Notes: generated by a model from the letters alone, not told the origin. DNA of 61,188 nucleotides from an uncultured Gemmatimonadales bacterium (GCA_964619975.1 CAZUIY010000061.1:1-61188); one strand, 5' to 3'. Positions 1-61,188 are shown, counted from the first letter of the stretch. Numbers and translations are program-made.

Positions 1-71
1 AGCATCCGAAAGCATTTACGAGTGTGCCACCTGAGCATTATACGCTGTTAGGCGATAGGTCTCTGAGGGTA
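1..71. repeat. Terminal direct repeat, left copy (probably the circular-assembly overlap)
   Basis: Bases 1-71 (agcatccgaa...ctctgagggta) are identical to 61118-61188. Confidence 0.95.
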
Positions 72-504
72 GTAGAAAGTAAATTAAATGTTCTGGTGAT
101 GCCGTGGCTCACTCTACGGCGGATCGTTAGGGCAAAATTAGGAATAGAAAACAATTAGAAATTATGTGGTTAAAATACATTCTGCACAAAATTCCGCTCA
201 TCCATTTCTATGGCAAATGGAAAACTATTCGTAGAGTAGACGGCATACTTGCTGGTAATATTTATGCGTACCAAGAGCGGGATTGCCAGCTATGTGGAAA
301 AGTTGAAAACCGCACAGCGGCACCCCAGTTTTGGACATAATTTCTTTTTGTGCTATTCCGACCGAAGGGAATTTTGCCCTAACGTTATCGGGCTTGGCGA
401 AGGTGGGCTTGTAGGATGCTCAATTTTAGCAGAATGTTTCTGCCCGCTTTTGCCAAACCCGTGTTAGTGGCAGTTAAATTATTAAACAATAAATATATTT
501 TAAA

Positions 505-720
505 ATGAAACACTTTATAGTTATCCAAATGACAATTGAAAAAGAAGAAATTGTCGGTAGTAGTAAAAATACTATTATGCAAAATATAGTAAGACAAATC
601 AAAGCGGAAAGCAAGGAAATTGCTATTGGTAAATTTGTTATTGCTACACAAGATATTAAAGCAATTAAAAAATTAGAGATTGAATGTTACGATTTGTCGG
701 AGTTGAAGTCGGTCGATTAA
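505..720 (+). CDS. Hypothetical protein in an AT-rich patch
   Basis: 71-aa ORF with an A-rich upstream region; no recognisable motif. Confidence 0.45.
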   Translation: MKHFIVIQMTIEKEEIVGSSKNTIMQNIVRQIKAESKEIAIGKFVIATQDIKAIKKLEIECYDLSELKSVD

Positions 721-832
721 TTGCCACTAACTGGTGGATATGCTCCAGTATGGCTAACGGTCTAAACATGAACAGATTAAAATTTCAATATCGGAAATCT
801 CATAACTCAACATTCCGAAAAACAAAAATCAA

Positions 833-1489
833 ATGACATCACAAATCAAAGCCGGAAAGGATCGTGTGATCCTGCGCCCAAAAGAACAAGAGAATAAAAG
901 AGAATCCATAGGCCCACACTCTGCTATCAAAACAAAGAGTGGTCTGTATGTTCCCGTTTACGATCAGAACGAGTTCGAACCCGATGTGTGTGATCAATAC
1001 GCATACGTTGTGGCCGTCCCTGAATCAGCCCGTGAACGAGTGGACACCAATAAATGGAGAACCCACGAGATCATTATCAAAGAAGGAGATTTATGCCTTG
1101 TCACACACAGCCTGAGAAAAAGACATTTGAAAATCGGTTGGCCGGACAAAGAATGTATCTCCATTCCATACCACCACATCTACGCCATTGTCAAAGACAA
1201 CAAACTTATTCCCAACGCTTGTCACAATATTTTGGAGCCTATCTTTGTAGGGAAAGAAGAACACACCGATGAATCAGGAGTAGTTGTTCTCAGCACAAGA
1301 ACCAGAAGTGAATCATTTGCCCGGGCAAAATGGATCAGCCAAAGTTTAAAGGACAAAGGAGTGAAGGAAGGAGATATTGTGGGTCTGGCTCCGGATATCA
1401 ACTACGAAGTAAAGTTTCAACAGAAAGAGTACTTTATTGTCGATACGGATTATGTGATGTGCGTGGTTAATCCTGAAATATTTGAATAA
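833..1489 (+). CDS. Tandem (two-domain) GroES/Cpn10-like co-chaperonin
   Basis: Two GroES-like units: DRVILRP..KTKSGLYVP..VVAVP..IKEGDLCLV..IYAIV, and NILEP..TDESGVVV..GVKEGDIVGL..YEVKFQQKEYFIVDTDYVMCVV. Confidence 0.75.
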   Translation: MTSQIKAGKDRVILRPKEQENKRESIGPHSAIKTKSGLYVPVYDQNEFEPDVCDQYAYVVAVPESARERVDTNKWRTHEIIIKEGDLCLVTHSLRKRHLKIGWPDKECISIPYHHIYAIVKDNKLIPNACHNILEPIFVGKEEHTDESGVVVLSTRTRSESFARAKWISQSLKDKGVKEGDIVGLAPDINYEVKFQQKEYFIVDTDYVMCVVNPEIFE

Positions 1490-1491
1490 AA

Positions 1492-1515
1492 AACGGGGAC
1501 TAATACATCCCCGTT
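1492..1515. terminator. Hairpin terminator between convergent genes
   Basis: AACGGGGA/TCCCCGTT stem between the gene ending at 1489 (+) and the gene ending at 1602 (-). Confidence 0.7.
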
Positions 1516-1601
1516 CGTTCTGTGTAATGGGCTAAATCAATTTTTCAAATCAATATTCCTGCTAATAATCAAAAAAGAAAAAGGCCACGAACTTCAACAA
1601 C

Positions 1602-1820
1602 TTATTTTTTGAAAGAAAACTTTTCGCCAAGTAATTCAATCCTTTGCCCAAGCACTTGCAGATACTCGTTCATTAATCTTGACTGTTTGTAAAGCAAGTC
1701 TTTGTTTTCTCTGTCTAAGTCAACAAATTTTTGCGTTCTCATAAAATCATTTAAGGCGTTTGTTTTTGTCGCCAACTCTTGTGCTTCGTTCAGAAGTCTT
1801 TCGTAAAATGAATTATCCAT
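1602..1820 (-). CDS. crAss001_48-like small coiled-coil protein
   Basis: ERLLNEAQEL..LNDFM..F..L....DLLYKQ...M..YLQVL.QRI pattern; TATATTTG promoter element on the - strand near 1854-1861. Confidence 0.7.
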   Translation of the reverse strand: MDNSFYERLLNEAQELATKTNALNDFMRTQKFVDLDRENKDLLYKQSRLMNEYLQVLGQRIELLGEKFSFKK

Positions 1821-1898
1821 TTTTCGTGGGGTTTAAGTTAGTTAAGTGAAAAGCAAATATAACCAACCACAACCTTCAATCACGGACATTTAACAAAT

Positions 1899-1931
1899 TT
1901 TGTCTATTGTCAATGATATTTCCTATTTTTG
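1899..1931 (+). promoter_or_regulatory. Bacteroidota-type primary-sigma promoter for the glycan cassette
   Basis: TTTG (1899-1902)-N21-TATTTTTG (1924-1931), matching the -33/-7 TAnnTTTG consensus, 26 nt before the ATG at 1958. Confidence 0.65.
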
Positions 1932-1957
1932 ACATCGAATCTTTAACAACCTGAAAA

Positions 1958-2425
1958 ATGACTATCGAACTTACTCCTGTTGACGGCACCGGTGCATTTG
2001 ACCTCAACGAAAACGCATTCATCCTCGCTCAAACAGAGGGAGACAATACACGGGTGTTTTACCGCCACCAAGATACCAGTGTTCGGCAAGAAATCCTCGT
2101 AGAAGAAACCGTTCTGGAAATCTTTGACGAAAGCCAAGCCGATGCTGCAAACATCGTGGCCACAGAAATTATCAAGGACGACATCGTTCACCTTGTAGCG
2201 ATCAACAAGAATCGCGTTGTGAAAATCTTTGATACCGATCCATGCGAGTTTAATTACAACCTTGCCTCTGCTTCGATCAATGAGATTTTGGTACACAACG
2301 GAGACAAGACCTCTTTTGAATCTGATCTTGCCGGAGATTATTCACCAAGCGCCTCCGCAAGTGAATCTCCAAGCGCTTCCGAAAGCGAGTCTGCCAGTGC
2401 TTCTGAAAGTGCATCAGAGAGCTAA
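1958..2425 (+). CDS. Beta-rich protein with a C-terminal Ser/Ala/Glu repeat tail (candidate glycan acceptor)
   Basis: Ends in SPSASASESPSASESESASASESASES; no signal peptide. Confidence 0.8.
   Translation: MTIELTPVDGTGAFDLNENAFILAQTEGDNTRVFYRHQDTSVRQEILVEETVLEIFDESQADAANIVATEIIKDDIVHLVAINKNRVVKIFDTDPCEFNYNLASASINEILVHNGDKTSFESDLAGDYSPSASASESPSASESESASASESASES
2342..2422 (+). repeat. Low-complexity (S-A/S-E)n coding repeat
   Basis: 27 codons with Ser at nearly every second position, using varied synonymous codons. Confidence 0.85.
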
Positions 2426-2435
2426 GACCTAACAC

Positions 2436-2975
2436 TTGACTGTTAAAGATCGAATAGAAGAAGTTATCTCAAATGGCGCGACAGGCTCTTTCCCCGAGTA
2501 CCACGCCATTTGGGATGATATTCGAAAATCAAGGAAAAAAGTAAACCTTCTGATTTTTGGGGTCGGCCACGACGCATTGCTCTGGAAGGAGTGTAATAAA
2601 ACCGGAAAGACCCTCTTTATTGAAAACAATCCAAAACTGGCCAAGCTTGGAAAAAAGTTAGGATGTCAGGTTTCCGGAACCGCGTACAACAGCAGAAAGC
2701 TATCGAAAGACAAAATCCATCACCCTTCTATCCTGGCTCTGAACTTAGGTAGAGAAGTCGAGAACACCGAATGGACACACATCTTTGTTGACGGACCAAA
2801 ACAAGAATGCCACGGCAGAATCAAGTCTATTTTCAATGCCTCTCGATTGGCAGGGAAAAATACGATGGTCTACGTAAGTAATTACGACAGGAAATCAGAA
2901 AAACTCTACACCGATCATTTCTTAAAAGTCAAAAGTGTAGTTGACCGATTAGCGGTATGTCAAAAACGGACGTAG
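2436..2975 (+). CDS. DUF579 (IRX15/GXM-like) SAM-dependent polysaccharide O-methyltransferase-like protein
   Basis: NLLIFGVGHDALLW..N..GKTLFIE..WTHIFVDGP..GRIKSIFNA..VYVSNYDRKSEK parallels the DUF579 motifs FGLGHDS..W / VF.E / DV.MVD.P / GRM.AI / VFVHD..R..E. Confidence 0.7.
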   Translation: MTVKDRIEEVISNGATGSFPEYHAIWDDIRKSRKKVNLLIFGVGHDALLWKECNKTGKTLFIENNPKLAKLGKKLGCQVSGTAYNSRKLSKDKIHHPSILALNLGREVENTEWTHIFVDGPKQECHGRIKSIFNASRLAGKNTMVYVSNYDRKSEKLYTDHFLKVKSVVDRLAVCQKRT

Positions 2976-3673
2976 TTTACACCATTGGTCGGTCCTGTAA
3001 TTGGGGTGATTTTGATGAACTCCGATACTCTCTACGATCTTTAAGTCTTTTTACCAGTATCGGACAAGTCTTTATAGTAGGACACAAGCCAGAGTGGGTT
3101 CAGAATGTCATTCACTTACCGCTGTCGGATCCATACAAACACAACAAGGATGCGAATCTCAACAACAAGATAGTTCTGGCTTGCTGTGACCAAAGACTGA
3201 GCGATCAATTCATACTCATGTCCGATGATCAGTATTTCCTGCAACAAACATCTACCGGGGAATTACGACCAGTTATAAGCAACAACTCCCACAAGCCAAA
3301 AAGCAAAGATCAGTGGAATCGCAGAATGACCAGAACCCTTAAACATCTCCAAAAGCGCGGACATTCAACAAATGTTTTTGAGGCACACTGTCCTTATTTG
3401 CTTGAAAAGGCAAAATATCCATCGATTGTTTTGGACTATTGCTTTGGTGAATCAGTTGGAATGTGTGGAAACACACTGTACTTCAACACCCTTGGAGTAA
3501 AAGGAGAGCCGAATAAAAACTATGTCACGGGATCAGGACGACTTGCTACACTACAGGAAATCACTAAAAAAGTCAGTGGATTCAGATTTTTAAACATCAA
3601 CCACGGAGTGAACGATGATCAGAAACAATTCCTTCAATCCAGGTTCCCAGAAAAAAGCCAATATGAAATCTAA
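2957..3673 (+). CDS. Stealth-family-like sugar-phosphotransferase
   Basis: DVVYT (CR1-like), DELRYSLRSL..FIV (CR2-like) and FILMSDDQYF (FIL.NDD-like). Confidence 0.65.
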   Translation: MSKTDVVYTIGRSCNWGDFDELRYSLRSLSLFTSIGQVFIVGHKPEWVQNVIHLPLSDPYKHNKDANLNNKIVLACCDQRLSDQFILMSDDQYFLQQTSTGELRPVISNNSHKPKSKDQWNRRMTRTLKHLQKRGHSTNVFEAHCPYLLEKAKYPSIVLDYCFGESVGMCGNTLYFNTLGVKGEPNKNYVTGSGRLATLQEITKKVSGFRFLNINHGVNDDQKQFLQSRFPEKSQYEI

Positions 3674-19058: not shown

Positions 19059-19582
19059 TATAGTAGTTTTTTGATGATGTAATTTTTCAGTTTCCGAACA
19101 GGACTTTTCTTTGATTCCACGTACTTCGCAAAGTCGTCAAAGTCCTTTGCAATAATCTGTTCTTCGAGTTCTTTCAAGTCCCTTGTGTTGGTTGGATTCT
19201 CGTGTACCGTAATCCAAACCAAGTCTGTTTTTGCAATCAAAGCCCGTTTTGTTCCGGCATCCGAAATCATAGCCAGAGGCCCAATCAAATATTCCTTTCC
19301 CCTGCCTTCAGTAATAACCACCACTTCTCCACTCATTAAAAAGTTTGGGTGTTGGTGCTTATGAATCTTTCCGGTCAACACAGTTCCGGCAGGAATAGAA
19401 ATCTGACGGACATACATATTCTCGGAGAACATGTGTTTGAGAGGACACAAAGGAGTATCGCCTTCAAACGACCCTTTGGACTTACGAATAGCATCTTCAA
19501 GCCTGCTGATACCCTCTTTGAAATCGGGTGCATCTTTTAGTTTGTCGATGTGGTTTTCGCTATGCTTTTCTACTCCTTCCAT
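19058..19582 (-). CDS. Cupin-fold protein of the tail/ejection module
   Basis: LKHMF..MYVRQISIPAGTVLTGKIHKHQH.NFLMSGEV..WITVHEN. Confidence 0.75.
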   Translation of the reverse strand: MEGVEKHSENHIDKLKDAPDFKEGISRLEDAIRKSKGSFEGDTPLCPLKHMFSENMYVRQISIPAGTVLTGKIHKHQHPNFLMSGEVVVITEGRGKEYLIGPLAMISDAGTKRALIAKTDLVWITVHENPTNTRDLKELEEQIIAKDFDDFAKYVESKKSPVRKLKNYIIKKLL

Positions 19583-22500
19583 TACGTAGATTTAATAGTG
19601 TATTCGCTGTCCTTGTGCTCCAAAGATACCGCAAATAGTTCAAATTTATTTTGCACTCCAAACGTCAGTTCTACAATAAAATACTGGCCCCGCATATCGT
19701 CTCCATTGATAATCGGATCTTCAACACCAGGAGTTAATTCGTTCTGCCATACAGATGCAAAAAACTGATCTTCCTGATACTCCCAATCGTCATTTCCCTC
19801 GAATAATGACGTGCGCTGACCACCTTTGTACGGTGAGGTGATTACTACTTCTTTTGGCTCCACAACATCGGCGTTCATCATTATACCGATTCCCTGTAAG
19901 AATTTAACTGCTTGTGGCCTTTGGTTGAACACCAGAGTAATCTTGCTGTCCTGAGCGGGTTCGTTGTCGTAGAACTGATTCCAGTTCTCATTTCTGTCAT
20001 GAATGTAAAGTTGGCCCTGCTTCCATGACACGAGTTTGTTTCGGTGGTTTCCCATTACATCAGGAAAAAATGGATAGTCCGTAACCCAACCTTTTTTATG
20101 TTCAGAATACGCCAAAGTTCGACCAAGAAAAACATTAAATCCGAACTCACTGTCCTCATCAACATACAGGAATCCCGGAACATGAACTATCAACTCTCCG
20201 TACTTCGGATCAAACGCTGTTAGAATATAAAGCGGAGATCCCTGACGACCCATGTAATCAGAAACAGTATTCCAGAAATCATCAATACCAAACTTTGAAA
20301 TTGGTGTAATCTCCCTACCTACCAACCGCAAGAATACACCGTTCTGAATCGATGGAAAATAAAACACACCTCCCCAATAAGTCAAGGATTCTCTAAAATT
20401 TCCAATTCCAAAACTCCCCGGAACGTAATTTATGTTACCAAGAACATTATCAGAGCGCATTATCATAGAAGACCCTGTAGCACTTAAAAGTTCCAGTGCT
20501 CTCACTGGTATCATTCCCGTTCCGAGCTCCTGAAAAACATACAAATAATCCTCTGGACATTCTAAACGCTGAATAAATCCACTCAGTTCATCGGGCTCAT
20601 CGCTTACATTGCCATCAAAAAACCGATTCAAACCGTTATTGTCCCCAAGTATGAAATCTGAATATCGTATCAATTCTTTTTTCCACGCTCTTTTTGCGTC
20701 TGGATTATACCTGTTAGCAGTACCAGGACCCCACCCATAAGAAGGATAAAAATCCGAGAACGACGAAGACTCAACTGTTCTGGTCTTGGATTTTGAACTA
20801 CTTAAAATCTTGCTGCGACCAATAACATACGCATCTCCTGTATTTTTTAATAATATCTCAGCGAATGGACTTGCCGACCCCGGGGTGTTTGACCCTTGGT
20901 TCAATCGGTTTCCATGATGCTGCGTCCCTGTCACCTTAAACGCCTGACCTATTTCATGGTATAAAACCTGATCTGTTGCTGCCTGATCCTTTGGAGTATA
21001 AACTTCTACGAGCGAACCCCTGCCAAACTGGGCAACATCTACGTAAGGCAACAACGACAGTTTATCCACTAAAAGCACGAGTCCAAACACCTCACCACTA
21101 TAAGACGCTGAATCCGTACCATCTCCAATGATTTCTATATCTACAAAAGTTTCTGCTTCTACATCTTCATCCGGATCGCCTGAACCAGAATCCTGATCTC
21201 CTGTCCAATACGTTACGAATCTTAGTCTATCTCCTTTTGTCCATGAATACGAAACATTACTACGTCCATCTACATCCGTAATGGTATTAAACGAACCAAT
21301 ATTATTTTGCCTATTATAAACAATAGTTCGGGACGAAAGAGCTATTTTAATTGCATCACCACCTTCTTCTATCCACGCAACTTCAAACGTAAGCCAATCT
21401 TGCATTGTGGCGTTCCCTGCATACATAAACTGATAATGGGTAGCCCAAGACGGGGCTGCACTCAATATCCGAATCAACATCGTTAATCCAAACGGCGAAG
21501 ACGCAAGGTTTTCATTGAAATATGGGATATAATGTATCTCCGGCTTCGTTACTGTAGCCCTACGACCCACGGAATCCCTGTACTCAATTGCCAGCGGATG
21601 ATTAGCTCCCATCTTAAAACCTCTACGACCGGCTGAATTAATTCCGGTAGCTTTCGTAATCATCCTGTTTACTCCGACCAGGCGATACCAGTTCCGTAAC
21701 TTGTCGAGTGATACTGTTCCTGCAAATGCACTTTGCCCCTGATCTGAAAAATCAAATTCTGCTACCAATGCTGTCGGACGAATCCGAAGCACAGGAGGAT
21801 AACCTGACGCAGTTGTGGTTTCCATTCCAACTGCAACGGTTGTAGTTTTACTTCTCCATGAACTCGGACCTCCCGAAGATAATTCCGACCATGTAGACAA
21901 TATGATTTCTACTTCAGTATTCAGGCTTTCAGAAGCCAATATCTCGGCTTCAAAGTAGTCCCTGATTTGTTCTGCGGTTTCTCCACCCTCACATTGGAAT
22001 GTGAATGTATCCGAAAGATACACGTATGAAGGATTGGGATCATCAAAAAACCTGCGGTATGACAACACCCCTAAATGATTCTGAGAAGAAAACGGAGAAC
22101 TCGTTACCTGAGCTATACCATCCTCCGGAGTAAGTCCGGGGAATTGTTGCAGCCATACCAAATGTCTTGATACCCTGAAATTAACTGTTATTGAAATTAC
22201 TGATCCCGCAACCGCCTCATACCCATCTGCTACAACTCCAAAGGGAGCCACATTGAAATACATATTGAGCCAACCCGTACCACTCAGAAAATCCGAGAAA
22301 GAATCCAACGCTTCCCAATCTGTTGGAAACGGAATTGTTAAAGGCTGACCTTCTGAAAATGTATATATCGGTAATCCCGCAGGTGAAATCTCTGCTGCAT
22401 ATAGCGACTCTGAACCAAGAGTGTTAAGATATAAATCATTATCGTTCCTGTTTCTCGGAAACATAATCGTAGACTGTATTGGCAGTCCGTCCAATGTTGT

Positions 22501-35111: not shown

Positions 35112-35501
35112 TTATATGAGTTCGGGCAATTCAGCACACGGTTTCAACTTGGTAGCAGCATGCTCTTCCTTCATGTAAAGAAGGCTTTCTATCTTTTCAT
35201 CGCTGAATCGAACAGAATAAACTCCGCTCCATGTGTCCTTAATTAGGTGTTCAAAACATCTCGGGTGCTCACTTCTAATCCTACGTTCTATTTTTTCATA
35301 CAGACGCTTACTTGACGTGAAAGCCTCCGTCCCTGAATCAACAGGCTTTACATCGACCAAGACTACTTCATGCCCTTGAAACATCAACTCAATTACATTA
35401 TTGATTATCCGTGTTGTATTACCACACCTTCTGTTTTCAACCATCGACAACCCCCCAAGGCTAGACACTACTTTAATGTCAATACTGTTCTGTGCTTCCA
35501 T
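35112..35501 (-). CDS. Small protein with a degenerate P-loop-like motif (RRCGNTT)
   Basis: ENRRCGNTTRIINNVIELMFQGHEVVLVD; inserted between portal and scaffold. Confidence 0.55.
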   Translation of the reverse strand: MEAQNSIDIKVVSSLGGLSMVENRRCGNTTRIINNVIELMFQGHEVVLVDVKPVDSGTEAFTSSKRLYEKIERRIRSEHPRCFEHLIKDTWSGVYSVRFSDEKIESLLYMKEEHAATKLKPCAELPELI

Positions 35502-38029: not shown

Positions 38030-38046
38030 AAGTCAACTGAGTTGAG

Positions 38047-38087
38047 CAAATGTAATCAAAATCAGCCGAACTGTTAAAAAGTGTTAA
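38047..38087 (-). promoter_or_regulatory. Portal-operon promoter with an inverted tandem TGTTAA box
   Basis: TACATTTG on the - strand at 38047-38054; TGTTAA-AAAG-TGTTAA on the + strand at 38072-38087. Confidence 0.65.
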
Positions 38088-38092
38088 AAAGC

Positions 38093-38121
38093 AAAACCCC
38101 ACCAGTCACGGTAGGGTTTTT
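38093..38121 (-). terminator. Hairpin terminator after the 123-aa gene
   Basis: AAAACCC/GGGTTTT stem. Confidence 0.55.
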
Positions 38122-38156
38122 CGCATGATTAAACGTGTTTTCGATTTTTTCTTAAA

Positions 38157-38528
38157 CTACGCATTGTAACTCAATCCGTCACGTGCCTTCCGAAAGACTG
38201 ACAAATTGGGTGATTTGATAATGGCATCATTTAAGTAGGGTCTATTCTCATTTCCGGCAGTCTTACCGCATTTATCAGAAAATGTCACCTCCGGGTTTTC
38301 CGAAATAAAATAAATATGGTCATAGCCTTGCTCCTGTTTACCATCACTACGCTTGACCTCTGCGGTCGCCACGTAATCATTGGTTGTAAGCAAAACATCC
38401 ATTTCAACATCCTGACCGATGTCGATATCAACTACCACTTCTTTTTCGACACTGCCTGTGGTTAGGGCAATGGCTGGGAGGGAAAACATCAGTAATCCGA
38501 CCAGCATTAGATTGAACAATCGTTTCAT
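38157..38528 (-). CDS. Secreted hypothetical protein
   Basis: MKRLFNLMLVGLLMFSLPAIA signal peptide; monocistronic, with a TGTTAA-N4-TGTTAA box at 38563-38578. Confidence 0.7.
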   Translation of the reverse strand: MKRLFNLMLVGLLMFSLPAIALTTGSVEKEVVVDIDIGQDVEMDVLLTTNDYVATAEVKRSDGKQEQGYDHIYFISENPEVTFSDKCGKTAGNENRPYLNDAIIKSPNLSVFRKARDGLSYNA

Positions 38529-38710
38529 GGGTCCTAAATTAATAACAATTTTGGAAAAAGGTTGTTAAACCCTGTTAAAAACAGACACCCCAACCGAGTA
38601 AACGGCTGAGGTGTCTGCTAACCAATCCTCCATTATGAAAAAAATACAGGAGCAATTTAAGCAAATCTGTGGATTCTACAAATCCGGACGCGAAAAATGT
38701 AAGAAACACA

Positions 38711-38740
38711 AAGCCCCAACCGAATGAACGATTGGGGCTT
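38711..38740 (-). terminator. Terminator closing the ncRNA cluster
   Basis: AAGCCCCAA/TTGGGGCTT 9-bp stem followed by a T-rich tail on the - strand. Confidence 0.7.
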
Positions 38741-38752
38741 CTCTGTCGTAGC

Positions 38753-38887
38753 GGGGGCATCCATGTAACGGCATCGCACTTTGTAGCTTTCCACGGCTCC
38801 TTGATCTGAGCCGACTCGGATTCACAGCAGAGGTACGCAGACTGTGTTTCGCAAACCTAACCGCCGTTAGACAGTTTGATAGCCCCC
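38753..38887 (-). ncRNA. Candidate 135-nt structured ncRNA
   Basis: Ends pair (GGGGGC/GCCCCC, ATC/GAT, TAACGGC/GCCGTTA); internal hairpins CACAG/CTGTG and GGCTC/GAGCC; non-coding, between the tRNA-like RNA and the terminator. Confidence 0.55.
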
Positions 38888-38903
38888 TTTTCTGGGTGGT
38901 ATG

Positions 38904-39069
38904 TGGACAGAGTAGGAGTTGAACCTACACCCTACTTTTTACAAGTCGATTAAGCTCGTCAACTTCAATAAGCCAGACAATCAACCTAACTTACATTCAT
39001 TGATTCAGGACGGATCACAGAGGACAAAATGTCTTGTTTCCGCGCGTCTACCAATTCCGCCATCTATCC
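38904..39069 (-). ncRNA. 166-nt tRNA-Leu-like RNA with an expanded anticodon/variable region
   Basis: Acceptor GGATAGA/TCTGTCC+A; Leu-type D arm GCGG-AATTGGTAGA-CGC; T arm GTAGG-TTCAACT-CCTAC; 114 nt between the D and T arms instead of about 30. Confidence 0.8.
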
Positions 39070-39205
39070 ATGTCGGTCTTTCCCGCCGTCACGATTTTTT
39101 ACGACCTCTTGACTTATTGTTTAAGCCGCAATAACCTGTGTCGTCTTGGGTGTGCTCCCTTCGCCCGTCCTGCACACATCGGTTTACTCGGGGTAGGGTA
39201 TGACA

Positions 39206-39251
39206 CAAATATAATCCGGTACGACAAAACCACCAAGTTAAAAACTGTTAA
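39206..39251 (-). promoter_or_regulatory. Promoter of the ncRNA cluster with an inverted tandem box
   Basis: TATATTTG on the - strand at 39206-39213, TTTG upstream; AGTTAA-AAAC-TGTTAA on the + strand at 39236-39251. Confidence 0.65.
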
Positions 39252-39252
39252 C

Positions 39253-39301
39253 AAAAAAAAGACCTCCCAATTTGAGCATTGTGAAGAGGCTTGGGAGGTT
39301 C
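39253..39301 (-). terminator. Intrinsic terminator ending the replication/middle operon
   Basis: ACCTCCCAA/TTGGGAGGT stem plus T8 on the - strand. Confidence 0.75.
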
Positions 39302-39348
39302 TACCTTTTTGCGACAGGTCATCGGTTACCGCGAAGATAGTGTTTTCC

Positions 39349-42239: not shown

Positions 42240-42719
42240 TTATTTAGTTTGCAAGGTACTTATTCTCTGTTGAACTACCGATGCCAACCGCTCTCCCAAC
42301 TCCCTCAAATATACATCCTTTTCACTTTTCAGATAAGCGGTGATATTGCGAAGCACCCGGCCATAAGGTATCCTTATCCTACGATGAGTCTCTTTCAAGT
42401 CTTGATGGCACCTGTACCACATCACGTAACAAAACAATCTCTGTATTCGCGCCCTGTTATACGCCTGCTCCATTGTAAGAGCGTCGAAGTGCGAGAAAAA
42501 ATAGATGATAAATTCCCTATCCTTTTCTTTGAAATTGTCGATGTTAAAATTAAACTGGGTAGAAACCCATCCGGCTAAACTTTCGTGTTGAACCCTGTCT
42601 ACGTGTTTGTAAAACGTGGTGCCGCTGATTTTCGCCGACCTTACGGCGTTCATCAATGTAGCCCCGGTTTTGACCTTGGAGAGAATAGCGCTGTATGTTT
42701 CTTCCGGCAGAGGCATCAT
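42240..42719 (-). CDS. Putative HTH DNA-binding protein
   Basis: GATLMNAVRSAKISGTTFYKHV is HTH-like. Confidence 0.5.
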   Translation of the reverse strand: MMPLPEETYSAILSKVKTGATLMNAVRSAKISGTTFYKHVDRVQHESLAGWVSTQFNFNIDNFKEKDREFIIYFFSHFDALTMEQAYNRARIQRLFCYVMWYRCHQDLKETHRRIRIPYGRVLRNITAYLKSEKDVYLRELGERLASVVQQRISTLQTK

Positions 42720-42991
42720 TACGATAGTACAGCCATCACGTATTCTTCGTTCATCAAAAGATACGATTCATTCTTGACTTTCATTTCCGTTCCACCCGTG
42801 GCTCCATACATCACCAAATCACCGACCTCGACTTCCACAACTTCCTTTCCGACCGCAACAACGGTTCCGCGTCTTGATTTTTCTTTTGCCTGGTCGGGAA
42901 TGAAGATTCCTGAATCTGTTTTATCCTTGGCGACTTCCGGAGAGATCAATACTCTACTCCCCAATGGTCTGATGTCTTTCTTTTTGCTCAT
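42719..42991 (-). CDS. groES: Co-chaperonin GroES (canonical single domain)
   Basis: IRPLGSRVLI..KTDSGIFIPD.AKEK..G.VVAVG..VEVGDLVMYG..GTE.K...YLLMNEEYVMAVL; likely start at 42991. Confidence 0.9.
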   Translation of the reverse strand: MSKKKDIRPLGSRVLISPEVAKDKTDSGIFIPDQAKEKSRRGTVVAVGKEVVEVEVGDLVMYGATGGTEMKVKNESYLLMNEEYVMAVLS

Positions 42992-43328
42992 TTGATTTTT
43001 GTTTTTCAAGTTCAAAATAATGCATCACTGTTTCATCGAACAACCCGTCTCCTGCCAGTCTCAAAAACTTCCGAACCGCAGAACTTTGTTTTGACAGTCC
43101 ACTCCATACGTTTGCGATGGCAGGAATGAAGTCCTCTTCGGAATCCACAAAAGTATCAAGAAGTGTCCTGCGATACCTCGGACGCGACGGTAGTGTAGGT
43201 CGTGATCGTTCTTCTCTTTCCTTTTTCTTTCGCTCGATATACGCCGTGGCCTTTTCGATGAACACAGGGTCTTTCACTATATCCCCGACTGTAGGGAATC
43301 TTTCGTCTATGATTTTTTGTGGGGTCAT
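42954..43328 (-). CDS. Hypothetical protein
   Basis: 124-aa co-directional ORF. Confidence 0.55.
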   Translation of the reverse strand: MTPQKIIDERFPTVGDIVKDPVFIEKATAYIERKKKEREERSRPTLPSRPRYRRTLLDTFVDSEEDFIPAIANVWSGLSKQSSAVRKFLRLAGDGLFDETVMHYFELEKQKSNEQKERHQTIGE

Positions 43329-43830: not shown

Positions 43831-45081
43831 TTATTTTTTCTGTTCCACTTCGTCCTCCGCGATGAACTCTATTTTCAAGTTTTCCTCTCCACGTCTTACT
43901 TCTTCTGTCAGCACCTGCATGTTGTACTTTTTGGCAATGTCGAGAATTGTTTTCAATCTCTCCGAACCAAGGCTCTCCCCCCTCTGGATGATTAAAGGAA
44001 GTTCAGGATTTTCCACGATTTTCATTCTGACTCCAAGTTCCATGATTTCTGACGTACTCAGGGATCCCACTTCTACCGGAACACCGTTGTACATCAGCCT
44101 GTCCTCGTCAAAGGCAAGCCCTTCCACCGGAAGATCACAATCACGAATACAATCCTGCACGGCTTGACGGCAACTATCAATAAGCGCTGTCATTTCTCCG
44201 CTTTCATCTTCGAGTTTTTCGATTTCTCGCTGCTTCTGCTCCAAAGATTCAAGATCGGAAACCCGTTTGTTATGTGTCTCGGCTTTTTCCAATTCATCGC
44301 TCAATCCGGATATATCGATCTTTTCATTGGATTTCAACCATGCTTCTCCCTTTTCCTTTTCTTCGACAAGTTTTCCATGTTTCTCCTGGAGGCGAAGAAT
44401 TTCTGCCTCAACCTCTGTGATCTCCCGAGTTCGTTCTTCCACTCCGTTTTGAACCTTCTCTACCTTTTCGTTGGTTTTACTGGCCTCGATGATTTGCTCA
44501 CGGATTTGAGAAGCGTCAATCTTTTTCTGATCACCGAGTCTCTGCCCGTACAAGGGATGGTCTTTTACGGCCCCCTTGAGTCTTTTAATATCGCGGTTAG
44601 TATCCTCTCGATCCCTGTAATGTCCGTCTATCTTCAATTCGTGGTTCTTCACAAAATCTTGAATCTCCTGATCAAGCAAAGACTTATAAATATTCACTTG
44701 CTTTTTTCTTCCTGCCTCTGTTTCGCTCAATGACACAAATTCGTCAATGTCAAAATCAACAGCTCCGGTGACTTGTTTGAGCGCTGAAACCCGGACATCA
44801 CGAACTCCTTCGGGGCTTGTTGTTTCTACTGTCGGTTTGCCGTCCTTCATTCTAACGCGAAACTTCCACTCCCTGCCGTCCTTGTCGGCCCACACTTCCC
44901 ATTCTCCGTTTTCTCCGGTAGGTAGTTTCTTTTTCTTACCAAGAGCAATATCTATCGCTTGTAGGAACGTGGACTTCCCCACTCCGTTTTCTCCGACAAC
45001 AAAGACATTCTTGCCTTCTATGTTGGATTCAAAATCTTCCAACGACTTGAACTTACTGATCGATACTTTTAGAATTTTCAT
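43831..45081 (-). CDS. SMC/Rad50-like coiled-coil ATPase
   Basis: Walker A GENGVGKST, long coiled coil, and degenerate signature/Walker B SLSTSE..LIIQRGESL. Confidence 0.85.
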   Translation of the reverse strand: MKILKVSISKFKSLEDFESNIEGKNVFVVGENGVGKSTFLQAIDIALGKKKKLPTGENGEWEVWADKDGREWKFRVRMKDGKPTVETTSPEGVRDVRVSALKQVTGAVDFDIDEFVSLSETEAGRKKQVNIYKSLLDQEIQDFVKNHELKIDGHYRDREDTNRDIKRLKGAVKDHPLYGQRLGDQKKIDASQIREQIIEASKTNEKVEKVQNGVEERTREITEVEAEILRLQEKHGKLVEEKEKGEAWLKSNEKIDISGLSDELEKAETHNKRVSDLESLEQKQREIEKLEDESGEMTALIDSCRQAVQDCIRDCDLPVEGLAFDEDRLMYNGVPVEVGSLSTSEIMELGVRMKIVENPELPLIIQRGESLGSERLKTILDIAKKYNMQVLTEEVRRGEENLKIEFIAEDEVEQKK

Positions 45082-45506: not shown

Positions 45507-45625
45507 TTGAATTTTTCTTTTAGTTTTTCGTCACCTTCTTCGCCTACCCACTTCTGAGGTGGACGGCGCTTTTCAGTGAAAGCCTCGTCGTGGAGTTCTC
45601 GTAAGTAGTCTGATTTACAATACAT
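45503..45625 (-). CDS. 40-aa hypothetical protein not in the ORF track
   Basis: Coupled at both ends (TAATG and ATGA overlaps). Confidence 0.45.
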   Translation of the reverse strand: MYCKSDYLRELHDEAFTEKRRPPQKWVGEEGDEKLKEKFK

Positions 45626-47606: not shown

Positions 47607-47827
47607 GTCAGTAATCGTTTAAGTTCATTTGTTGCCGCGTTCATCTCTCGCTGTATCTCCCGCAAAGAAGGAGTTTGACGAGGAACCTGGTGTCGATATG
47701 CACGACAAATTCCAGTGGCATTGATAAATCCTTCACACTTTCCGCAGTAGTTCGCTGTCCGACCAAGAGCGGTTGTTGATTTCATGGGTTCCGGATCCTC
47801 GCCGCAGTGCTTACACTTTTTCATCAA
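47603..47827 (-). CDS. Small zinc-finger-like protein
   Basis: CxxC..CxxC. Confidence 0.55.
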   Translation of the reverse strand: MMKKCKHCGEDPEPMKSTTALGRTANYCGKCEGFINATGICRAYRHQVPRQTPSLREIQREMNAATNELKRLLT

Positions 47828-49914
47828 TTAAAGTTTAATTGGTCAATATCCATTTCTTCATCTTCTGTTGTAAGATCGAAAGAGTTATCAGGCTTTATCG
47901 CTGTTTCGTGGTGTGCGGTGTTGGGTTCACGAGTGATAGTTTCTTGCTTTATTTTTATCTCAGGATGATTCTTTGCCCACTCAGGTATTACTTGCTCCTG
48001 TTTACCCGTCTCAGGGTTGTTCCTAAATGCGAATTTTCCGTTTCTAATGTCATGCCAATGCTTCACGGGGTCGAAACCTTCCAGTGTCTCAAATCCGGTA
48101 ACGTATGGCTTTGCTCGAAGTTGAACGGGTTGGTCTTTTGTTGTTGGTTTCCCGCCTGTTTCAGTTTCTTTAATTTTCCTGACATGAATATCCGTAATGT
48201 TCCAATCCGTAGGATGGTCTACTATCCTGTGAATAGTCCAGAAATCATCTGCCTTGTTACTGAATTTCCCACCGCCTTCAGTGTGTGCTTTCATTGGTGG
48301 TCGCGCGTAACCATCGCCGTCAAACATTCTCAGGGCTTCAGTTACGGCGTGGCAATTCACGATTATACTTAGGTCATTGGCGGCTCCGAATTGCTTCAGA
48401 GCATTGACAGCTGTGTAGTGGAATGAATGCTCATTGACACCGATCGGAACGTCGAGCGAGTTGTACGGGTCAATCATTGCCATGCTGTTTTTCCGAACTT
48501 TGTTTGCAGCCCTGAACATTTCAATGATGTCTCGGTAATTGTACAAATCTTCTTTGTTTTTGATGATTTGGAAATGCTTTTTTACAAACGCTCCCGCCTC
48601 TTTTCTTTTGACCGCTGACATTCCCTTGTAGCTTTCACCCCAATAAAACTCAGATAGTTTCCTGACGACAAACCCATGCCCGTTTTCACCGGTGTAGATG
48701 ATCGAATTTAAGCCGTGAAACATTGCTCCGAGCAGCATAATGAACCATATCACTACCGACTTACCTACGTTGTCATGGCCGTTGATAATTAACAGCGTCG
48801 CAGATTTGAACAACCAGTGTTTATCCAGTTCGGGAATACCGGTAGTTTTACCCATCGGTAAAGTGCCGTTGGCCGCCATTTCCAGATACTCGGAATAATC
48901 TTTTTCGTCTGCTAAGAAATCTGTGACCGGTGTTTCTTCAGTGATTTTTGGCTGCACGTATTCGACCGGCTTTGTCGGTGTGCTTTTCACCGGTTCCATC
49001 CGGTCGCCGTAACCTTCAGCGTACAGTTTCTTTGCGGCTTCATTCCAATCTCCACCACATTCGAGCATCGCGTACACCGCGTATGGTCGGTATGCTTTCT
49101 GCGGTTCAAATTCTGTTGAGGTCGTGAATACACTGAACCAACCCCTACCTTCATCCCAATTGCCCGAATATGCCGCGCTTGTGGTCCCAGGTCGTTTAAG
49201 TAGCGTTTTATCGCCTTTTTGCTTCACAACTACCCATTGGTGCCGTTCCAGCAATCCAACAACGTCTGCCTTCTCGTTGTAGTCGTCAAACGGGGTCAGG
49301 TCTGCAATGTTCCGCGTTTGTCTCTGTGATGGTTTCTTTTCCTCTTTGATTACTTCATTGAACGATCGGCACACACTGATAAGGGTTTCCCGTTGATCAG
49401 GTGTAATTTCTTTGATGTCGTCGAGACTTCCATAAGTCACAGTGTAACCTTCCGTTGGGGCCACAGCAAAGTAACCGCCTTCACCGCGCGTTTCGATTAA
49501 TACTTTCACCTTTTCACCGGTCGTCTTTTCTTCATCCGTGGCCAGTCTTTGCGCCAACTTCAGGTTACCTTCAATCTCGCTGCACCGGTAGATCATGTGA
49601 TAACCACCATTGCGCGTTGTCTGCACGGTCATGAGCGGTAAAATGGTTTCGTCTATTTCGTTTATAGCTTTTTTGAGTTCCGGCCAAAGTTTACCGGTCA
49701 GGTCGTACTTACAATCCACGTCAATGCCTTCTACTCCACCAGATAATTTACCACAGACCATACCCACACCATCACCATTCAGCGGAAAATCTTCAGTTGA
49801 GGTCTGCCAATTTTCAACTATTGGAATTTTGGTTTTTGAAATCGGTATGAGCTTAATTGACATAGGGGAACATTTCAGGGTTGGTCTTAAAATGATGTTG
49901 GATGATCTTGACAT
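47824..49914 (-). CDS. Bifunctional AEP primase(-polymerase) / SF4-like helicase
   Basis: Prim-pol motifs GIDVDCK and TTRNGGYH; helicase TGIPELD..INGHDNVGKS..MIDPYNSL..IVNCH..GGGKFSNKAD..HVRKIK. Confidence 0.85.
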   Translation of the reverse strand: MSRSSNIILRPTLKCSPMSIKLIPISKTKIPIVENWQTSTEDFPLNGDGVGMVCGKLSGGVEGIDVDCKYDLTGKLWPELKKAINEIDETILPLMTVQTTRNGGYHMIYRCSEIEGNLKLAQRLATDEEKTTGEKVKVLIETRGEGGYFAVAPTEGYTVTYGSLDDIKEITPDQRETLISVCRSFNEVIKEEKKPSQRQTRNIADLTPFDDYNEKADVVGLLERHQWVVVKQKGDKTLLKRPGTTSAAYSGNWDEGRGWFSVFTTSTEFEPQKAYRPYAVYAMLECGGDWNEAAKKLYAEGYGDRMEPVKSTPTKPVEYVQPKITEETPVTDFLADEKDYSEYLEMAANGTLPMGKTTGIPELDKHWLFKSATLLIINGHDNVGKSVVIWFIMLLGAMFHGLNSIIYTGENGHGFVVRKLSEFYWGESYKGMSAVKRKEAGAFVKKHFQIIKNKEDLYNYRDIIEMFRAANKVRKNSMAMIDPYNSLDVPIGVNEHSFHYTAVNALKQFGAANDLSIIVNCHAVTEALRMFDGDGYARPPMKAHTEGGGKFSNKADDFWTIHRIVDHPTDWNITDIHVRKIKETETGGKPTTKDQPVQLRAKPYVTGFETLEGFDPVKHWHDIRNGKFAFRNNPETGKQEQVIPEWAKNHPEIKIKQETITREPNTAHHETAIKPDNSFDLTTEDEEMDIDQLNFN

Positions 49915-52781: not shown

Positions 52782-54587
52782 TCAATTCTTGAAATTTGGC
52801 CGCGAACCTTGCACGGCGGGTTCTCCGGTGACGGGGTGGGTGTCGGAGGCGTAGCGATATTCTTGCGTTTGAGTTTTCCAAGGGTAGGAGTGTGTTTTTA
52901 CGTGGTGATCAACCATTCTAGGCTTCATTTCTTTTATGTAGTCACCAACCCACATCATCCTCGGAAACTTGTCAGCTTCCGGTTCCATCTTGCTGTCCTG
53001 CGCGGGTTCGATTATGGTCGCCCATTGGCCGTTCAGGAATAAGAAAACACCTTCTACAGAGACCGTACAGTCATTATCGCTATCACACAACTCAATTTCA
53101 ATATCCAACTCTTCAATAGTTCTATTGTTTCCGCTCCACGTGCTTTCAACCACATCACCAACCTTGTACTTTTTCTCGGTCATTTCGGTCAACATCCGCT
53201 CAACCTCTTTCGGGTTGGCGGGGGTGAGGTCATCGTATTCATGAACAGAAACCCACGGTGAATGAAATTGATTACTATTGTCAAGCCATTCTCCATTAGT
53301 TCGAACTCCATAACCGTGAATTCCCCCCTTGTCGTTTATTGAAGTCGCCATAAACATACCTGTCTCGGAATACTTCCACCACTTCCCAACCCGATCAACT
53401 TTCAGAAGTTCACGGGCTCGGTCGTAGTTGCCGTGAGCAACTTCATTCCAGAACTGGTAGCCTTCATCCTTATCATCCCACTTTCCAATTGCAGCAACAG
53501 CGGCAGGCAAATCTTCAGGGTGCAACGTGTAATATTCGGACGTCTCATCCACCTGCCTCAAAGCCCTTTCCGCAATGTCCTCCGGTAGTGTTTTCAGGAA
53601 GTCGGTGAGAGTGGCGCGGCGACAATGCTCTATACGCACTCCGTTCGGCACCCCTAATTCTGGTCGAGCCCAAGGCTTCTCGTTAATACCTTGGATACTT
53701 ATTTCTTCTATCTTAAAAATTGGTATAAACTCTTCCTTACGAAAATCATCTTCCGATTTGTCAGCGTAAGCCATCATCCCCACCTTCAACTCATCTTCGG
53801 TTGGTTCTAGCTCGTTCAAACAAGAATCTTCTTTTTCTTCTTGTATTCTCCTGTCTTCAAAAGATTCGATAAATATAGGTGTGTCGGATGCGTACTCCCA
53901 AGCACTCAATAGTTTTTCTTTGAAGGTTCCCAATTCATCCGAGTCTTGAAACTCAAAGCCTCCAGTTATCTTCCATTCGACATCAGGTATCCCAACAGAT
54001 TGGTCGCCTGAAAACACAACGTAAAACCCATCAATACTCAACGGTTTTTGTTTTTCTGACCCAAACACAAGGGCGCGGGCTTCGGAGAGGGGGATTTCGG
54101 TGCGGGTTTTCGCATCATAATGCGCTTCACCTGCTATACACCCATACCAAAGCTTCCGTTTGAAATCGAATCCAAAAGACTCCCACCCATCAACCCTAAG
54201 TACTTCATGAATCCGGTTCACCGTATCTCTTTTGTTGTCGCTTTTAATAGCGCGTCCTGATAATTTGTGTTTCACCTGCCCAGTTTTCACATCCGACGAC
54301 TGTTCATTTTCACCCCAAGAAAACTCAACCCAATGCTCTTTACCGTCGAAACACACCACACACTTAATACCGATACCACGAAGAACTTCAAAGTCCTGGT
54401 ACTCATCTTCTGTTGGAGGTTCCGGCGGTGTAGACGCGTAGTAGTACTTCAACGATGTTTTTCCTTCTTTCATAGCCCTCAGTATCGAATCGCATTTATG
54501 CCTTAACCCGCTACGTGTATCGATATCCAGTAACAACGATTCAAGGGACTTCTTGATCTGTTTCTGCGGCTTTTTCTCAGTACTCAT
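52782..54587 (-). CDS. 601-aa multi-domain hypothetical protein
   Basis: First gene of the leftward operon; appears to be a string of short unrelated domains. Confidence 0.75.
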   Translation of the reverse strand: MSTEKKPQKQIKKSLESLLLDIDTRSGLRHKCDSILRAMKEGKTSLKYYYASTPPEPPTEDEYQDFEVLRGIGIKCVVCFDGKEHWVEFSWGENEQSSDVKTGQVKHKLSGRAIKSDNKRDTVNRIHEVLRVDGWESFGFDFKRKLWYGCIAGEAHYDAKTRTEIPLSEARALVFGSEKQKPLSIDGFYVVFSGDQSVGIPDVEWKITGGFEFQDSDELGTFKEKLLSAWEYASDTPIFIESFEDRRIQEEKEDSCLNELEPTEDELKVGMMAYADKSEDDFRKEEFIPIFKIEEISIQGINEKPWARPELGVPNGVRIEHCRRATLTDFLKTLPEDIAERALRQVDETSEYYTLHPEDLPAAVAAIGKWDDKDEGYQFWNEVAHGNYDRARELLKVDRVGKWWKYSETGMFMATSINDKGGIHGYGVRTNGEWLDNSNQFHSPWVSVHEYDDLTPANPKEVERMLTEMTEKKYKVGDVVESTWSGNNRTIEELDIEIELCDSDNDCTVSVEGVFLFLNGQWATIIEPAQDSKMEPEADKFPRMMWVGDYIKEMKPRMVDHHVKTHSYPWKTQTQEYRYASDTHPVTGEPAVQGSRPNFKN

Positions 54588-59423: not shown

Positions 59424-59425
59424 CC

Positions 59426-59650
59426 ATGAAAACAGAAATCACCAAATTCAATCTCCGACCCCTGCAGTACCTCTCAGGACTGAAATCCATGATCTACACC
59501 CAGGCATTAATTGAATGCGCCCTACACGGACAGATGGTGCCATTCCTGCAGCTCATAGAACTCAGCAAAAGGAAAGCCAAGGCTCAGAACATCGTGGAGG
59601 AACAAGGACAAGTGGAACTCAATAAATTTTTACGGATTATTCAAAACTGA
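59426..59650 (+). CDS. Early hypothetical protein
   Basis: The ATG at 59426 follows the upstream stop. Confidence 0.55.
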   Translation: MKTEITKFNLRPLQYLSGLKSMIYTQALIECALHGQMVPFLQLIELSKRKAKAQNIVEEQGQVELNKFLRIIQN

Positions 59651-59654
59651 AATT

Positions 59655-60056
59655 ATGAACAAAGAAAACCTTTTAAAAGCAGCCGACTACATCGAAACCA
59701 TTCCGCAGGAGAAGTTTGATATGCGCGATTGGCGCAGCGGTCAAACGTCTACCCATAAATGCTGTAGCGTGGGATGTATACTGGGACATTGCACTATACT
59801 TGACGAAAAAGAAAACGTTTTTAGATTTAAGAGATGGGATGGCCATATTGATTTTTACGATTGGGCTGCGTCTTTTTTCAGCTTACAGAGGTATTCCGAC
59901 GAAATGACATGGCTGTTTCGTTCACAATGGGGGCATAATAACACCGACAACACCCCCACCGGTGCAGCCAAACGAATACGGCACTTTGTCGAACACGGAC
60001 TACCAGAAAACTGGAGAGAACAAATGAACGGAAACGCACCCCTCTGCTACCTATAA
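59655..60056 (+). CDS. Early hypothetical protein
   Basis: L.KAADYIE..FDM..W..C.SVGC.LGH. Confidence 0.65.
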   Translation: MNKENLLKAADYIETIPQEKFDMRDWRSGQTSTHKCCSVGCILGHCTILDEKENVFRFKRWDGHIDFYDWAASFFSLQRYSDEMTWLFRSQWGHNNTDNTPTGAAKRIRHFVEHGLPENWREQMNGNAPLCYL

Positions 60057-60210
60057 TCTCAGAGCCATGCAACGACTGACCCCACACCGACAAAAAGCAA
60101 TGGAGAACTACCGGAAATGGCTTGTATGGACTCCGTTTGCTCACTGGCAACACTGGAAAGAATGGGAAACAAAACGACAACGAGGAATTATACAATAAAA
60201 CCCAAAACAA

Positions 60211-60585
60211 ATGAAAAAGTCAAAAACAAGAGAGGAATTATTGATTAATACTTGTAAGTTTTACAACTCAGAAAATAGAGGTATTGATAAGCTGTATGAT
60301 TGCCGATACATGACTGATGAAAAAAAACGTTGCTCAATAGGTAGGGAGGTGTCTACCAATAAAGCTGTAGAATTGGAAAGAGAAGGCGGTACTGTTCGTC
60401 ATGTGTTCTCACTCCTCCCTAAAAGACTACAATCAATGGGTGAAGACTTCTTGTTATCCATTCAACAGCTACACGATTCAGGATTGAATTGGACAAAAGA
60501 TGGATTATCCTACGCTGGTGTAGAAAAGGTTATGGGTCTAATCCGTGAGTACAAATTAAACGTCACCAAAGAAGATTTGACATGA
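60211..60585 (+). CDS. Early hypothetical protein
   Basis: CRY.T....RC.IG..FL..IQQLHD pattern. Confidence 0.65.
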   Translation: MKKSKTREELLINTCKFYNSENRGIDKLYDCRYMTDEKKRCSIGREVSTNKAVELEREGGTVRHVFSLLPKRLQSMGEDFLLSIQQLHDSGLNWTKDGLSYAGVEKVMGLIREYKLNVTKEDLT

Positions 60586-60736
60586 ACCAACACCACCTCA
60601 GAGAACGCTACACCGGATACGCCATGATCGCCGGATGCCTGATTGCACTAGCAGCCTGTTACCTTCTTATTTCAGCCATCATCAAACCGAAAATGGATTG
60701 GATGTGCCCGGCAAAAACTCAAATCGAAATCAAACT

Positions 60737-61039
60737 ATGAGAAAACTCAAAATACCCAAGCACCTCGACAAGAGACGAAAGTTGACGGACGACCAACGAG
60801 CGGAAATCAAGAGACTCTTTGACTCCGGTCAAACCAATAAGTCTGAACTGGCAAAAAAGTTCAACGTAGGACGAAAGCTTATTGGATGCATTGTTCATCC
60901 CGAAAGAATGGAGCGTCACCTGAGCCAGAACAGGGAGAGAAACCGCGGAAAAACGGACAAAGAAAGAAACGCCGCAGCACAAACCCGGTACAGGGAAAGG
61001 AAAAAAGACCTGTTCCTGGATGGAAAGATCAGGGAGTGA
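60737..61039 (+). CDS. HTH DNA-binding protein
   Basis: RRKLT.DQ..EIK.LF..G.TNKSELAKKFNVGRKLI.CIV.PE; likely start is the ATG at 60737. Confidence 0.7.
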   Translation: MRKLKIPKHLDKRRKLTDDQRAEIKRLFDSGQTNKSELAKKFNVGRKLIGCIVHPERMERHLSQNRERNRGKTDKERNAAAQTRYRERKKDLFLDGKIRE

Positions 61040-61060
61040 TTGTCTGTCCGCAGGCAATTG

Positions 61061-61188
61061 AGCCTGAATGATCCGCCGTATAATGCGCGGGTGGTGCACG
61101 GTGAGGAACGAGCCGAAAGCATCCGAAAGCATTTACGAGTGTGCCACCTGAGCATTATACGCTGTTAGGCGATAGGTCTCTGAGGGTA
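61061..61188 (+). ncRNA. Candidate structured RNA of about 190 nt that continues across the circular junction to base ~133
   Basis: 61068-61080 pairs with 115-127; TATAATGC/GCATTATA and GGGTGG-GCAC/GTGC-CACCT inner helices. Confidence 0.5.
61118..61188. repeat. Terminal direct repeat, right copy
   Basis: Identical to 1-71. Confidence 0.95.

Follow-up and report, generated by a model that had tools for sequence, protein, structure and literature searches.

A circular 61-kb podophage genome without a recognizable large terminase gene belongs to a portal clade that lacks the gene at its usual site

The large terminase subunit (TerL) is regarded as a hallmark shared by all tailed phages, and it usually serves as the marker by which phage genomes are found and classified and their completeness is checked. 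In the crAss-like phages, TerL is described as the most conserved protein and one of eight universal genes, the core being composed of the major capsid protein (MCP), TerL, the portal, IHF, the tail stabilization protein, the tail tubular protein, and genes 74 and 75 (PMC7886860). Here, we analyzed a podophage genome contained in a contig of 61,188 bp from an uncultured Gemmatimonadales bacterium (GCA_964619975.1, CAZUIY010000061.1:1-61188; this whole stretch of DNA is called the window below), and we looked into its apparent lack of terL, which had been noticed in a preliminary description made from the sequence alone.

Among cultured phages, the portals nearest to that of the window (22 to 26% identity) belong to Elemovirus phages of Flavobacterium, to MW202828, to Maribacter phage Panino, and to Cellulophaga podophages; no near-identical DNA was found among cultured phages. 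In elemoC and MW202828, the two records that we inspected, a TerL of 748 to 876 amino acids (aa) is encoded directly upstream of the portal, as it is in the uncultured contigs L008 and L009. When the portal was used as the query, word-indexed and exhaustive HMMER searches revealed closer lineages. The nearest outgroups of the lineages described below, P0129 (contig L040, portal 45 to 46% identical) and P0130 (L039, 34 to 35%), also keep terL directly upstream of the portal, a position that holds a TerL of 686 to 876 aa in the outgroups. The preliminary description had given the position upstream of the portal as the usual one for TerL in crAss-like phages, and this is correct for the relatives inspected (elemoC, MW202828, L008, L009, L040, and L039) and for 11 relatives from IMG/VR.

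The first 71 bases of the window (1 to 71) are an exact match to the last 71 (61118 to 61188), a terminal overlap that is the assembler's circular signature and leaves a unique length of 61,117 bp. The portal gene lies on the minus strand (35522..38029; 835 aa by the longest open reading frame [ORF], 814 aa as the database call) and matches phrog_6547 at 2e-53. We evaluated the ancestral terL site upstream of it (38030..39348, minus strand) with ORF and stop-codon maps and a terminator scan, and we found no TerL remnant in any frame. The site contains a terminator-like hairpin (38093-38120), a 123-aa ORF (38157-38528) with a signal-peptide-like N terminus, and 820 bp of ORF-poor sequence (38529-39348), the largest such stretch of the window. 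The preliminary description had indeed noted a small secreted protein and noncoding RNAs upstream of the portal, which correspond to this ORF, to terminator-like hairpins, and to an abiF motif presented below, and its statement that no unexplained gap reaches about 1.2 kb also holds. We rejected stop-codon reassignment or introns as a mask for terL: all three stops are frequent in every frame of 38000-41400, so recoding hides no gene there, and no TerL fragment of at least 20 aa was found.

No TerL was detected in PHROG scans of ∼54 ORFs taken singly and of all 150 ORFs of at least 70 aa, and the only match to a "terminase small subunit" PHROG was the HNH domain of a 115-aa ORF. A custom TerL hidden Markov model (HMM), built from the TerLs of the relatives and applied, with its filters disabled, to all stop-to-stop fragments of the six frames, gave a best E value of 2.4 in the window. 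With the TerL of the sister lineage (L040) included in the profile, nothing was found in the circularized window with its join or in any of the TerL-less loci; over the custom HMM runs, the best E in the window was about 2 to 5. tblastn with the TerLs of the relatives, including that of the sister lineage, returned noise only (best E of 0.4 to 0.6), phmmer with the full-length TerL of the sister lineage reached a best E of 1.5 in the window, and when the window proteins were compared one by one by hhalign with an alignment of 12 TerL sequences, the probability never exceeded 1.4%. The Pfam families Terminase_1, Terminase_3, Terminase_6, and GpA were not found among the window matches (E up to 0.005), but this last negative is uninformative, because Pfam does not recognize the TerL type of this phage group: its bona fide TerLs (L001 17734-19980, L002 17317-19947, L008 7867-9927, L009 2465-4693) have zero Pfam-A matches. 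Since Pfam is blind to this type, PHROGs and the purpose-built profile are the valid tests. The TerLs of the relatives match phrog_6681 at 1e-79 to 1e-178, and the custom HMM detected a ∼700-aa TerL ORF adjoining the portal in 11/11 distant IMG/VR relatives (E of ∼1e-234), as well as the TerLs of L040 (4e-89) and L039 (2e-43). Of the Terminase and PHROG profiles proposed in the preliminary description, only the latter thus give an informative negative for this TerL type. We conclude that terL is absent from the window contig, which confirms the earlier view of a circular genome with no recognizable TerL.

The closest portal relatives, to which the preliminary description had also pointed, lack terL at its usual site as well. 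Their portals are 53% (P0002), 46% (P0003), 46% (P0004), and 44% (P0005) identical to that of the window, and they are known as fragments of 3 to 41 kb from several samples in ENA, JGI, and Logan (contigs L003, L004, L005, and L034; L006, L023, L025, and L030; L007; L041). We found no terL upstream of the portal in L003 to L007, L023, L025, L030, and L041, and no TerL in the 31 kb recovered of the 41-kb P0003 scaffold (L003, L004, L005, and L034 combined). In a neighbor-joining tree, the five TerL-less portals (window and P0002 to P0005) were grouped with a bootstrap value of 79/100, with P0129 and P0130 outside. IMG/VR and GTDB genomes contained no member of this clade, only distant TerL-bearing relatives or chance pattern matches. 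terL is therefore absent from its ancestral site across all sampled members of a monophyletic portal clade, whereas it is retained by the outgroups. Because five grouped lineages lack terL and both nearest outgroups have it, one ancient loss explains the data better than a one-off misassembly at the site, and the simplest history is a single terL loss at the ancestral site followed by long diversification.

The site that terL occupies in the outgroups is variable in the clade (L006 1-537; L025 3404-4830; L030 1-1636; L007 2997-3566; L041 193-843). In P0003, P0004, and P0005, it is filled with homologues of four window genes encoding proteins of 218, 155, 179, and 238 aa. In the window, these genes form a block on the plus strand (833..3673) that encodes a double GroES-like protein (218 aa), the 155-aa protein, an IRX15/GXM-like protein (179 aa), and a Stealth_CR2-like protein (238 aa), as judged from Pfam and PHROG matches, and tblastn gave 33 to 47% identity to L003, L004, L005, and L007. 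The block occupies the outgroup terL site just upstream of the portal in L003 and L007, whereas in the window it has been moved to the opposite strand. The 218-aa protein is weakly similar to an ORF beside terL in elemoC and, less directly, to an ORF close upstream of terL in MW202828. The four genes were rejected as terL remnants, as they match GroES, IRX15/GXM, and Stealth-like proteins instead and reach at most 0.4% in hhalign. A sulfotransferase-like gene is additionally present at the site in P0004 and P0005. Upstream of the near-identical P0002 portals, three different gene sets occur, and that of L025 includes an N6-adenine methyltransferase gene. In their head modules, the TerL-less members have the same genes as the TerL-bearing sister L040, with no extra conserved gene.

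We propose that a small clade of uncultured podophages (window and P0002 to P0005), whose relatives are the Elemovirus, Cellulophaga-phage, and crAss-like groups, descends from an ancestor that lost terL from its position directly upstream of the portal. The emptied site would have turned into a variable cargo site, and the clade would then have diverged to 44 to 53% portal identity while its head and tail module was kept intact. The packaging enzyme would be made outside the replicon, most probably by a coinfecting TerL-encoding relative, for example, an L040-type sister, and the members of the clade may thus be viewed as large "inverse satellites," which assemble a virion from their own genes and take only the motor from elsewhere. 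A motor made outside the replicon is most likely because a portal-based capsid needs an ATPase for filling and no credible ATPase is encoded; a working rather than a decaying particle is suggested because the portal is well conserved across the clade (65% mean column identity). That the motor is supplied in trans, and by which donor, is inferred, and we adopt tentatively, with confidence that falls a little short of even, the reading in which the 61-kb replicon is truly without terL and receives its motor from a TerL-encoding relative or another external source. The helper-dependent or defective lineage put forward in the preliminary description has gained strength in this respect, since the terL site is empty throughout the five-lineage portal group and kept in both outgroups.

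Several points weigh against a motor supplied in trans. No helper phage was identified, and neither an integrase/recombinase family nor any other satellite hallmark was found among the Pfam matches of the window. The clade is represented by one complete genome only, a metagenomic assembly, and terL could lie in the unsampled parts of the relatives, given that these are seen as 3- to 41-kb fragments. To our knowledge, a phage with everything except TerL has no described precedent, which lowers the prior.

terL might also exist off the contig, either because it moved and was skipped by the assembler or because it sits on a second genome segment or on a variant graph path. We regard this as rather unlikely, although it comes second after supply in trans: TerL is otherwise universal in portal-bearing phages, no protein of the crAss-like assemblage is described as more conserved (PMC7886860), only one genome of the clade is complete, and ∼10 kb of the 41-kb L003 scaffold as well as the rest of its genome are unseen. 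Relocation of the gene would have to coincide with an assembly failure precisely at terL. However, besides the terminal overlap, no second repeat of at least 35 nucleotides (nt), able to collapse the graph, was found within the window, no terL fragment occurs in any frame, and the absence at the usual site is repeated in independent assemblies. The sequence at the join also speaks against such a gap. The join sits within an ORF-poor stretch of a plus-strand block of small genes, which runs from ∼55.1 kb through the join to 4.3 kb. Inverted repeats of 11 nt (61070-61080 and 115-125) and 10 nt (61077-61086 and 35-44) pair across it, and the 237-nt join-spanning stretch has a minimum free energy of −84.5 kcal/mol (z = −4.0), with 0/200 shuffles equally stable. 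The 5′ half of this structured stretch lies at 61041..61188 (plus strand), from where it crosses the join and extends to approximately base 160. This continuous, structured sequence supports the view that a loss at the join is unlikely, while the completeness of the whole circle is not proven by it. The helix across the join noted in the preliminary description is thus borne out. As for the skipped assembly segment also considered there, it is excluded at the portal-adjacent site by independent contigs from other samples, unlikely at the join, and possible elsewhere.

It is improbable, in our view, that the contig encodes a motor that escaped recognition, either a nonhomologous ATPase or a TerL beyond detection, for example, among the orphan ORFs of 601, 289, 428, and 221 aa. 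Many ORFs are indeed without annotation, and the largest unexplained nonstructural one, of 601 aa (52782..54587, minus strand), has no P-loop and yielded an AlphaFold2 model with a predicted local distance difference test (pLDDT) score of 31, which is unusable. This ORF shows that the earlier statement that every ORF over 400 aa has an explanation went too far. However, it has no PHROG, Pfam, PDB, or phage match and no homologue among 5.8 billion proteins; since it has no homologue anywhere, it does not encode a conserved clade function. PDB sequence searches with the ORFs of 601, 428, 562, and 766 aa and with the portal returned nothing. A motor added by the clade would moreover be at odds with the identical head gene sets of the TerL-less members and L040, and the ready detection of the sister TerL makes divergence past detection implausible over a similar portal distance. 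No unexplained ORF contains a pair of Walker A and Walker B motifs, and the hhalign probabilities given above also speak against a hidden TerL.

Canonical Walker A motifs were found only in a 696-aa primase-helicase and in a 416-aa ABC/SMC-type ATPase (43831..45081, minus strand; phrog_1499 at 3e-42, with AAA_15, AAA_23, and SMC_N matches). Homologues of the 416-aa protein occur in 72 cultured phages, and it has no PDB sequence match. Its homologue in Parabacteroides phage PDS1, gp23, belongs to a recombination module, with genes for nucleases and a RuvC resolvase next to it, in a phage that encodes a TerL and a portal of its own. We therefore rejected the 416-aa protein as the motor; it is a recombination or repair accessory. 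We also rejected a 129-aa ORF (35112..35501, minus strand), whose "RRCGNTT" loop is reminiscent of the deviant Walker A of the TerL group: it has no family match and no orthologue in the relatives, and its AlphaFold2 model (pLDDT of 62) matches no P-loop NTPase, the top PDB match in Foldseek being to Top7-like designs (E = 0.02). The divergent motor that the preliminary description had sought in one of these two proteins is thus unsupported. Likewise improbable is the proposition that the clade packages its DNA without any TerL homologue, by means of a nonhomologous motor among the orphan ORFs, possibly aided by the structured RNAs beside the portal.

That the contig is a defective, decaying phage genome without infectious particles, as its missing essential gene might suggest, is very improbable, since the ORFs are long and intact throughout the structural module, five lineages at 44 to 53% portal identity have kept their portal, MCP, and tail genes intact and in order, a conservation that requires purifying selection to have acted on a functional particle over a long time, and the element is a free circular replicon with no copy, and hence no prophage, in 185,579 species genomes.

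The remaining virion genes lie in a long minus-strand block that extends from 54.9 kb down to 4.3 kb. Between the portal and MCP genes is a gene for a scaffold-like protein of 415 aa (33840..35087, minus strand), which has an acidic Pro/Glu-rich N terminus, no family match, and orthologues in L003, L004, L006, L007, and L023. The MCP-like protein (475 aa; 32361..33788, minus strand) matches phrog_13704, a "virion structural protein" family, at 4e-7, and its orthologues in the relatives are 41 to 49% identical and conserved in position. A muzzle-like giant tail protein of 1,462 aa (19582..23970, minus strand) matches the crAss_MUZ_C gene of L008 (tblastn, 9e-11) and also large structural proteins of L001 and L002. 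Several large beta-rich proteins are encoded between the MCP-like and muzzle-like genes, and the block also contains a tail fiber gene, a gene for a giant protein of 2,125 aa followed by genes for fiber-like proteins, and a lysis pair composed of a DUF5675 protein and a spanin-like protein. The virion set listed in the preliminary description thus stands for the portal, MCP-like, muzzle-like, and scaffold-like proteins, the "ring" and "ejection" roles being assigned by gene position only. The ORFs of 400, 428, 464, 562, 615, and 766 aa were likewise placed by synteny or composition only. One window ORF matches the Pfam family crAss001_48.

The replication and recombination genes of the minus strand encode a replication initiator, the primase-polymerase/helicase (696 aa; 47824..49914; phrog_19930 at 4e-71, with a Prim-Pol match), a RuvC-like resolvase, an HNH nuclease, and the ABC/SMC-type ATPase. 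A 274-aa protein (45625-46449, minus strand; phrog_6706, of unknown function), flanked by the RuvC-like resolvase and the ABC ATPase, has an acidic "DEDEQDDLPF" tail, as in single-strand-binding proteins. Small membrane proteins and a GroES-like protein are encoded on the minus strand between the ATPase and the portal. We observed a perfect 20-nt inverted repeat (817-836 and 42988-43007; ∼0.003 such matches expected by chance), which spans the leader and the start codon of both GroES-like genes (833..1489, plus strand; 42719..43015, minus strand) and could be a shared expression signal or a recombination/inversion site. In L009, the distant TerL-bearing relative, an IS605-type TnpB gene (OrfB_IS605, Cas12f-like; 7110-8312, minus strand) directly follows the portal gene.

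Two further features adjoin the join. Just past it, nested inverted repeats of 15 nt (125-139 and 370-384) and 11 nt (157-167 and 335-345) border the structured stretch, and they could serve as an origin, in packaging, or in regulation. On the other side of the join, a 134-aa protein (60635-61039, plus strand) combines a basic tail with a helix-turn-helix of the resolvase/CENP-B type; it could have a regulatory role or bind DNA in the manner of a small terminase.

The ORF-poor sequence upstream of the portal contains an abiF RNA motif (RF03085; 39262..39298, minus strand), which scored 54.5 bits (gathering score, 37; E = 7e-9) and covers the full length of the model (positions 1 to 37). No gene for an Abi_2/AbiF protein was found among the Pfam matches of the window. 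In Clostridioides difficile, the AbiF toxin is neutralized in trans by an RNA with abiF motifs (PMC12373285), and the orphan phage motif might act as a decoy against AbiF. A tRNA-like acceptor stem and T-arm (GGTTCAACTCCTAC), ∼100 nt apart, lie at ∼38893-39072 (minus strand); ARAGORN called this element as a tRNA with a 75-nt "intron" at a relaxed threshold only, and it has no Rfam tRNA or transfer-messenger RNA match. No tRNA genes were found in the window. Two more ORF-poor stretches, at 38700-38890 and 38575-38700, end in terminators. A conserved pRNA-like RNA upstream of the portal was rejected, because the gaps of the relatives share no sequence and the relatives have no Rfam match.

A monophyletic, long-lived clade with portal, capsid, and tail but no terL would represent either full-size phages that borrow only their motor or a new kind of motor, and surveys based on TerL would overlook such phages. 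A nonhomologous motor, if true, would be the first nonorthologous replacement of the hallmark packaging enzyme of Caudoviricetes. Independently of these readings, TerL screens relying on Pfam miss a whole phage group, in which a verdict of "no TerL" by Pfam alone is unreliable.

We compared the element with known systems. The closest is the TerL-bearing sister L040 (JGI 3300040801, Ga0450804_4206015; P0129), which has the head order of the window (portal, scaffold-like, MCP-like, and genes for proteins of ∼440 and ∼530 aa) but carries, directly upstream of the portal, a 739-aa TerL with an "RRDGKS" Walker A motif, where the window has none. Elemovirus (Flavobacterium phage vB_FspP_elemo), Caudoviricetes sp. 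ctfjg026 (MW202828), Panino, and the Cellulophaga podophages have genomes of ∼60 kb like the window (77 kb in Panino). These phages resemble the window in that they encode a giant protein of the muzzle type and, close to the packaging site, a GroES-like protein, whereas elemoC and MW202828 encode the phrog_6681 TerL and GroEL. The TerL-portal-MCP arrangement of Crassvirales is shared by the wider relatives, which match the Pfam crAss ring and muzzle families. Of the Crassvirales core, the window has the portal and an MCP-like protein, but TerL is absent, no IHF/Bac_DNA_binding match was found, and the tail core genes are unidentifiable by sequence; its portal resembles those of environmental outgroup phages rather than those of gut crAss phages.

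Phage satellites (P4, SaPI/PICI, capsid-forming PICI, and PLE) are small and usually integrated, lack most virion genes, and depend on another phage for some of the machinery that makes their particles. In contrast, the element of the window has 61 kb, is nonintegrated and without a detected integrase, and encodes complete sets of virion and replication functions from which only the motor is missing. Packaging of the phi29 type uses the gp16 ATPase (an ASCE protein of ∼330 aa with a Walker A motif) and pRNA. The window resembles phi29 as a podovirus that has a portal, lacks a classical two-domain TerL, and carries noncoding RNA near its packaging genes, but it has no gp16-like ATPase, no protein-primed PolB, and no Rfam pRNA match. 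On the features compared, the element thus falls outside Crassvirales, the known satellites, and phi29-type packaging, and, filed under none of them, it is a variant tailed phage.

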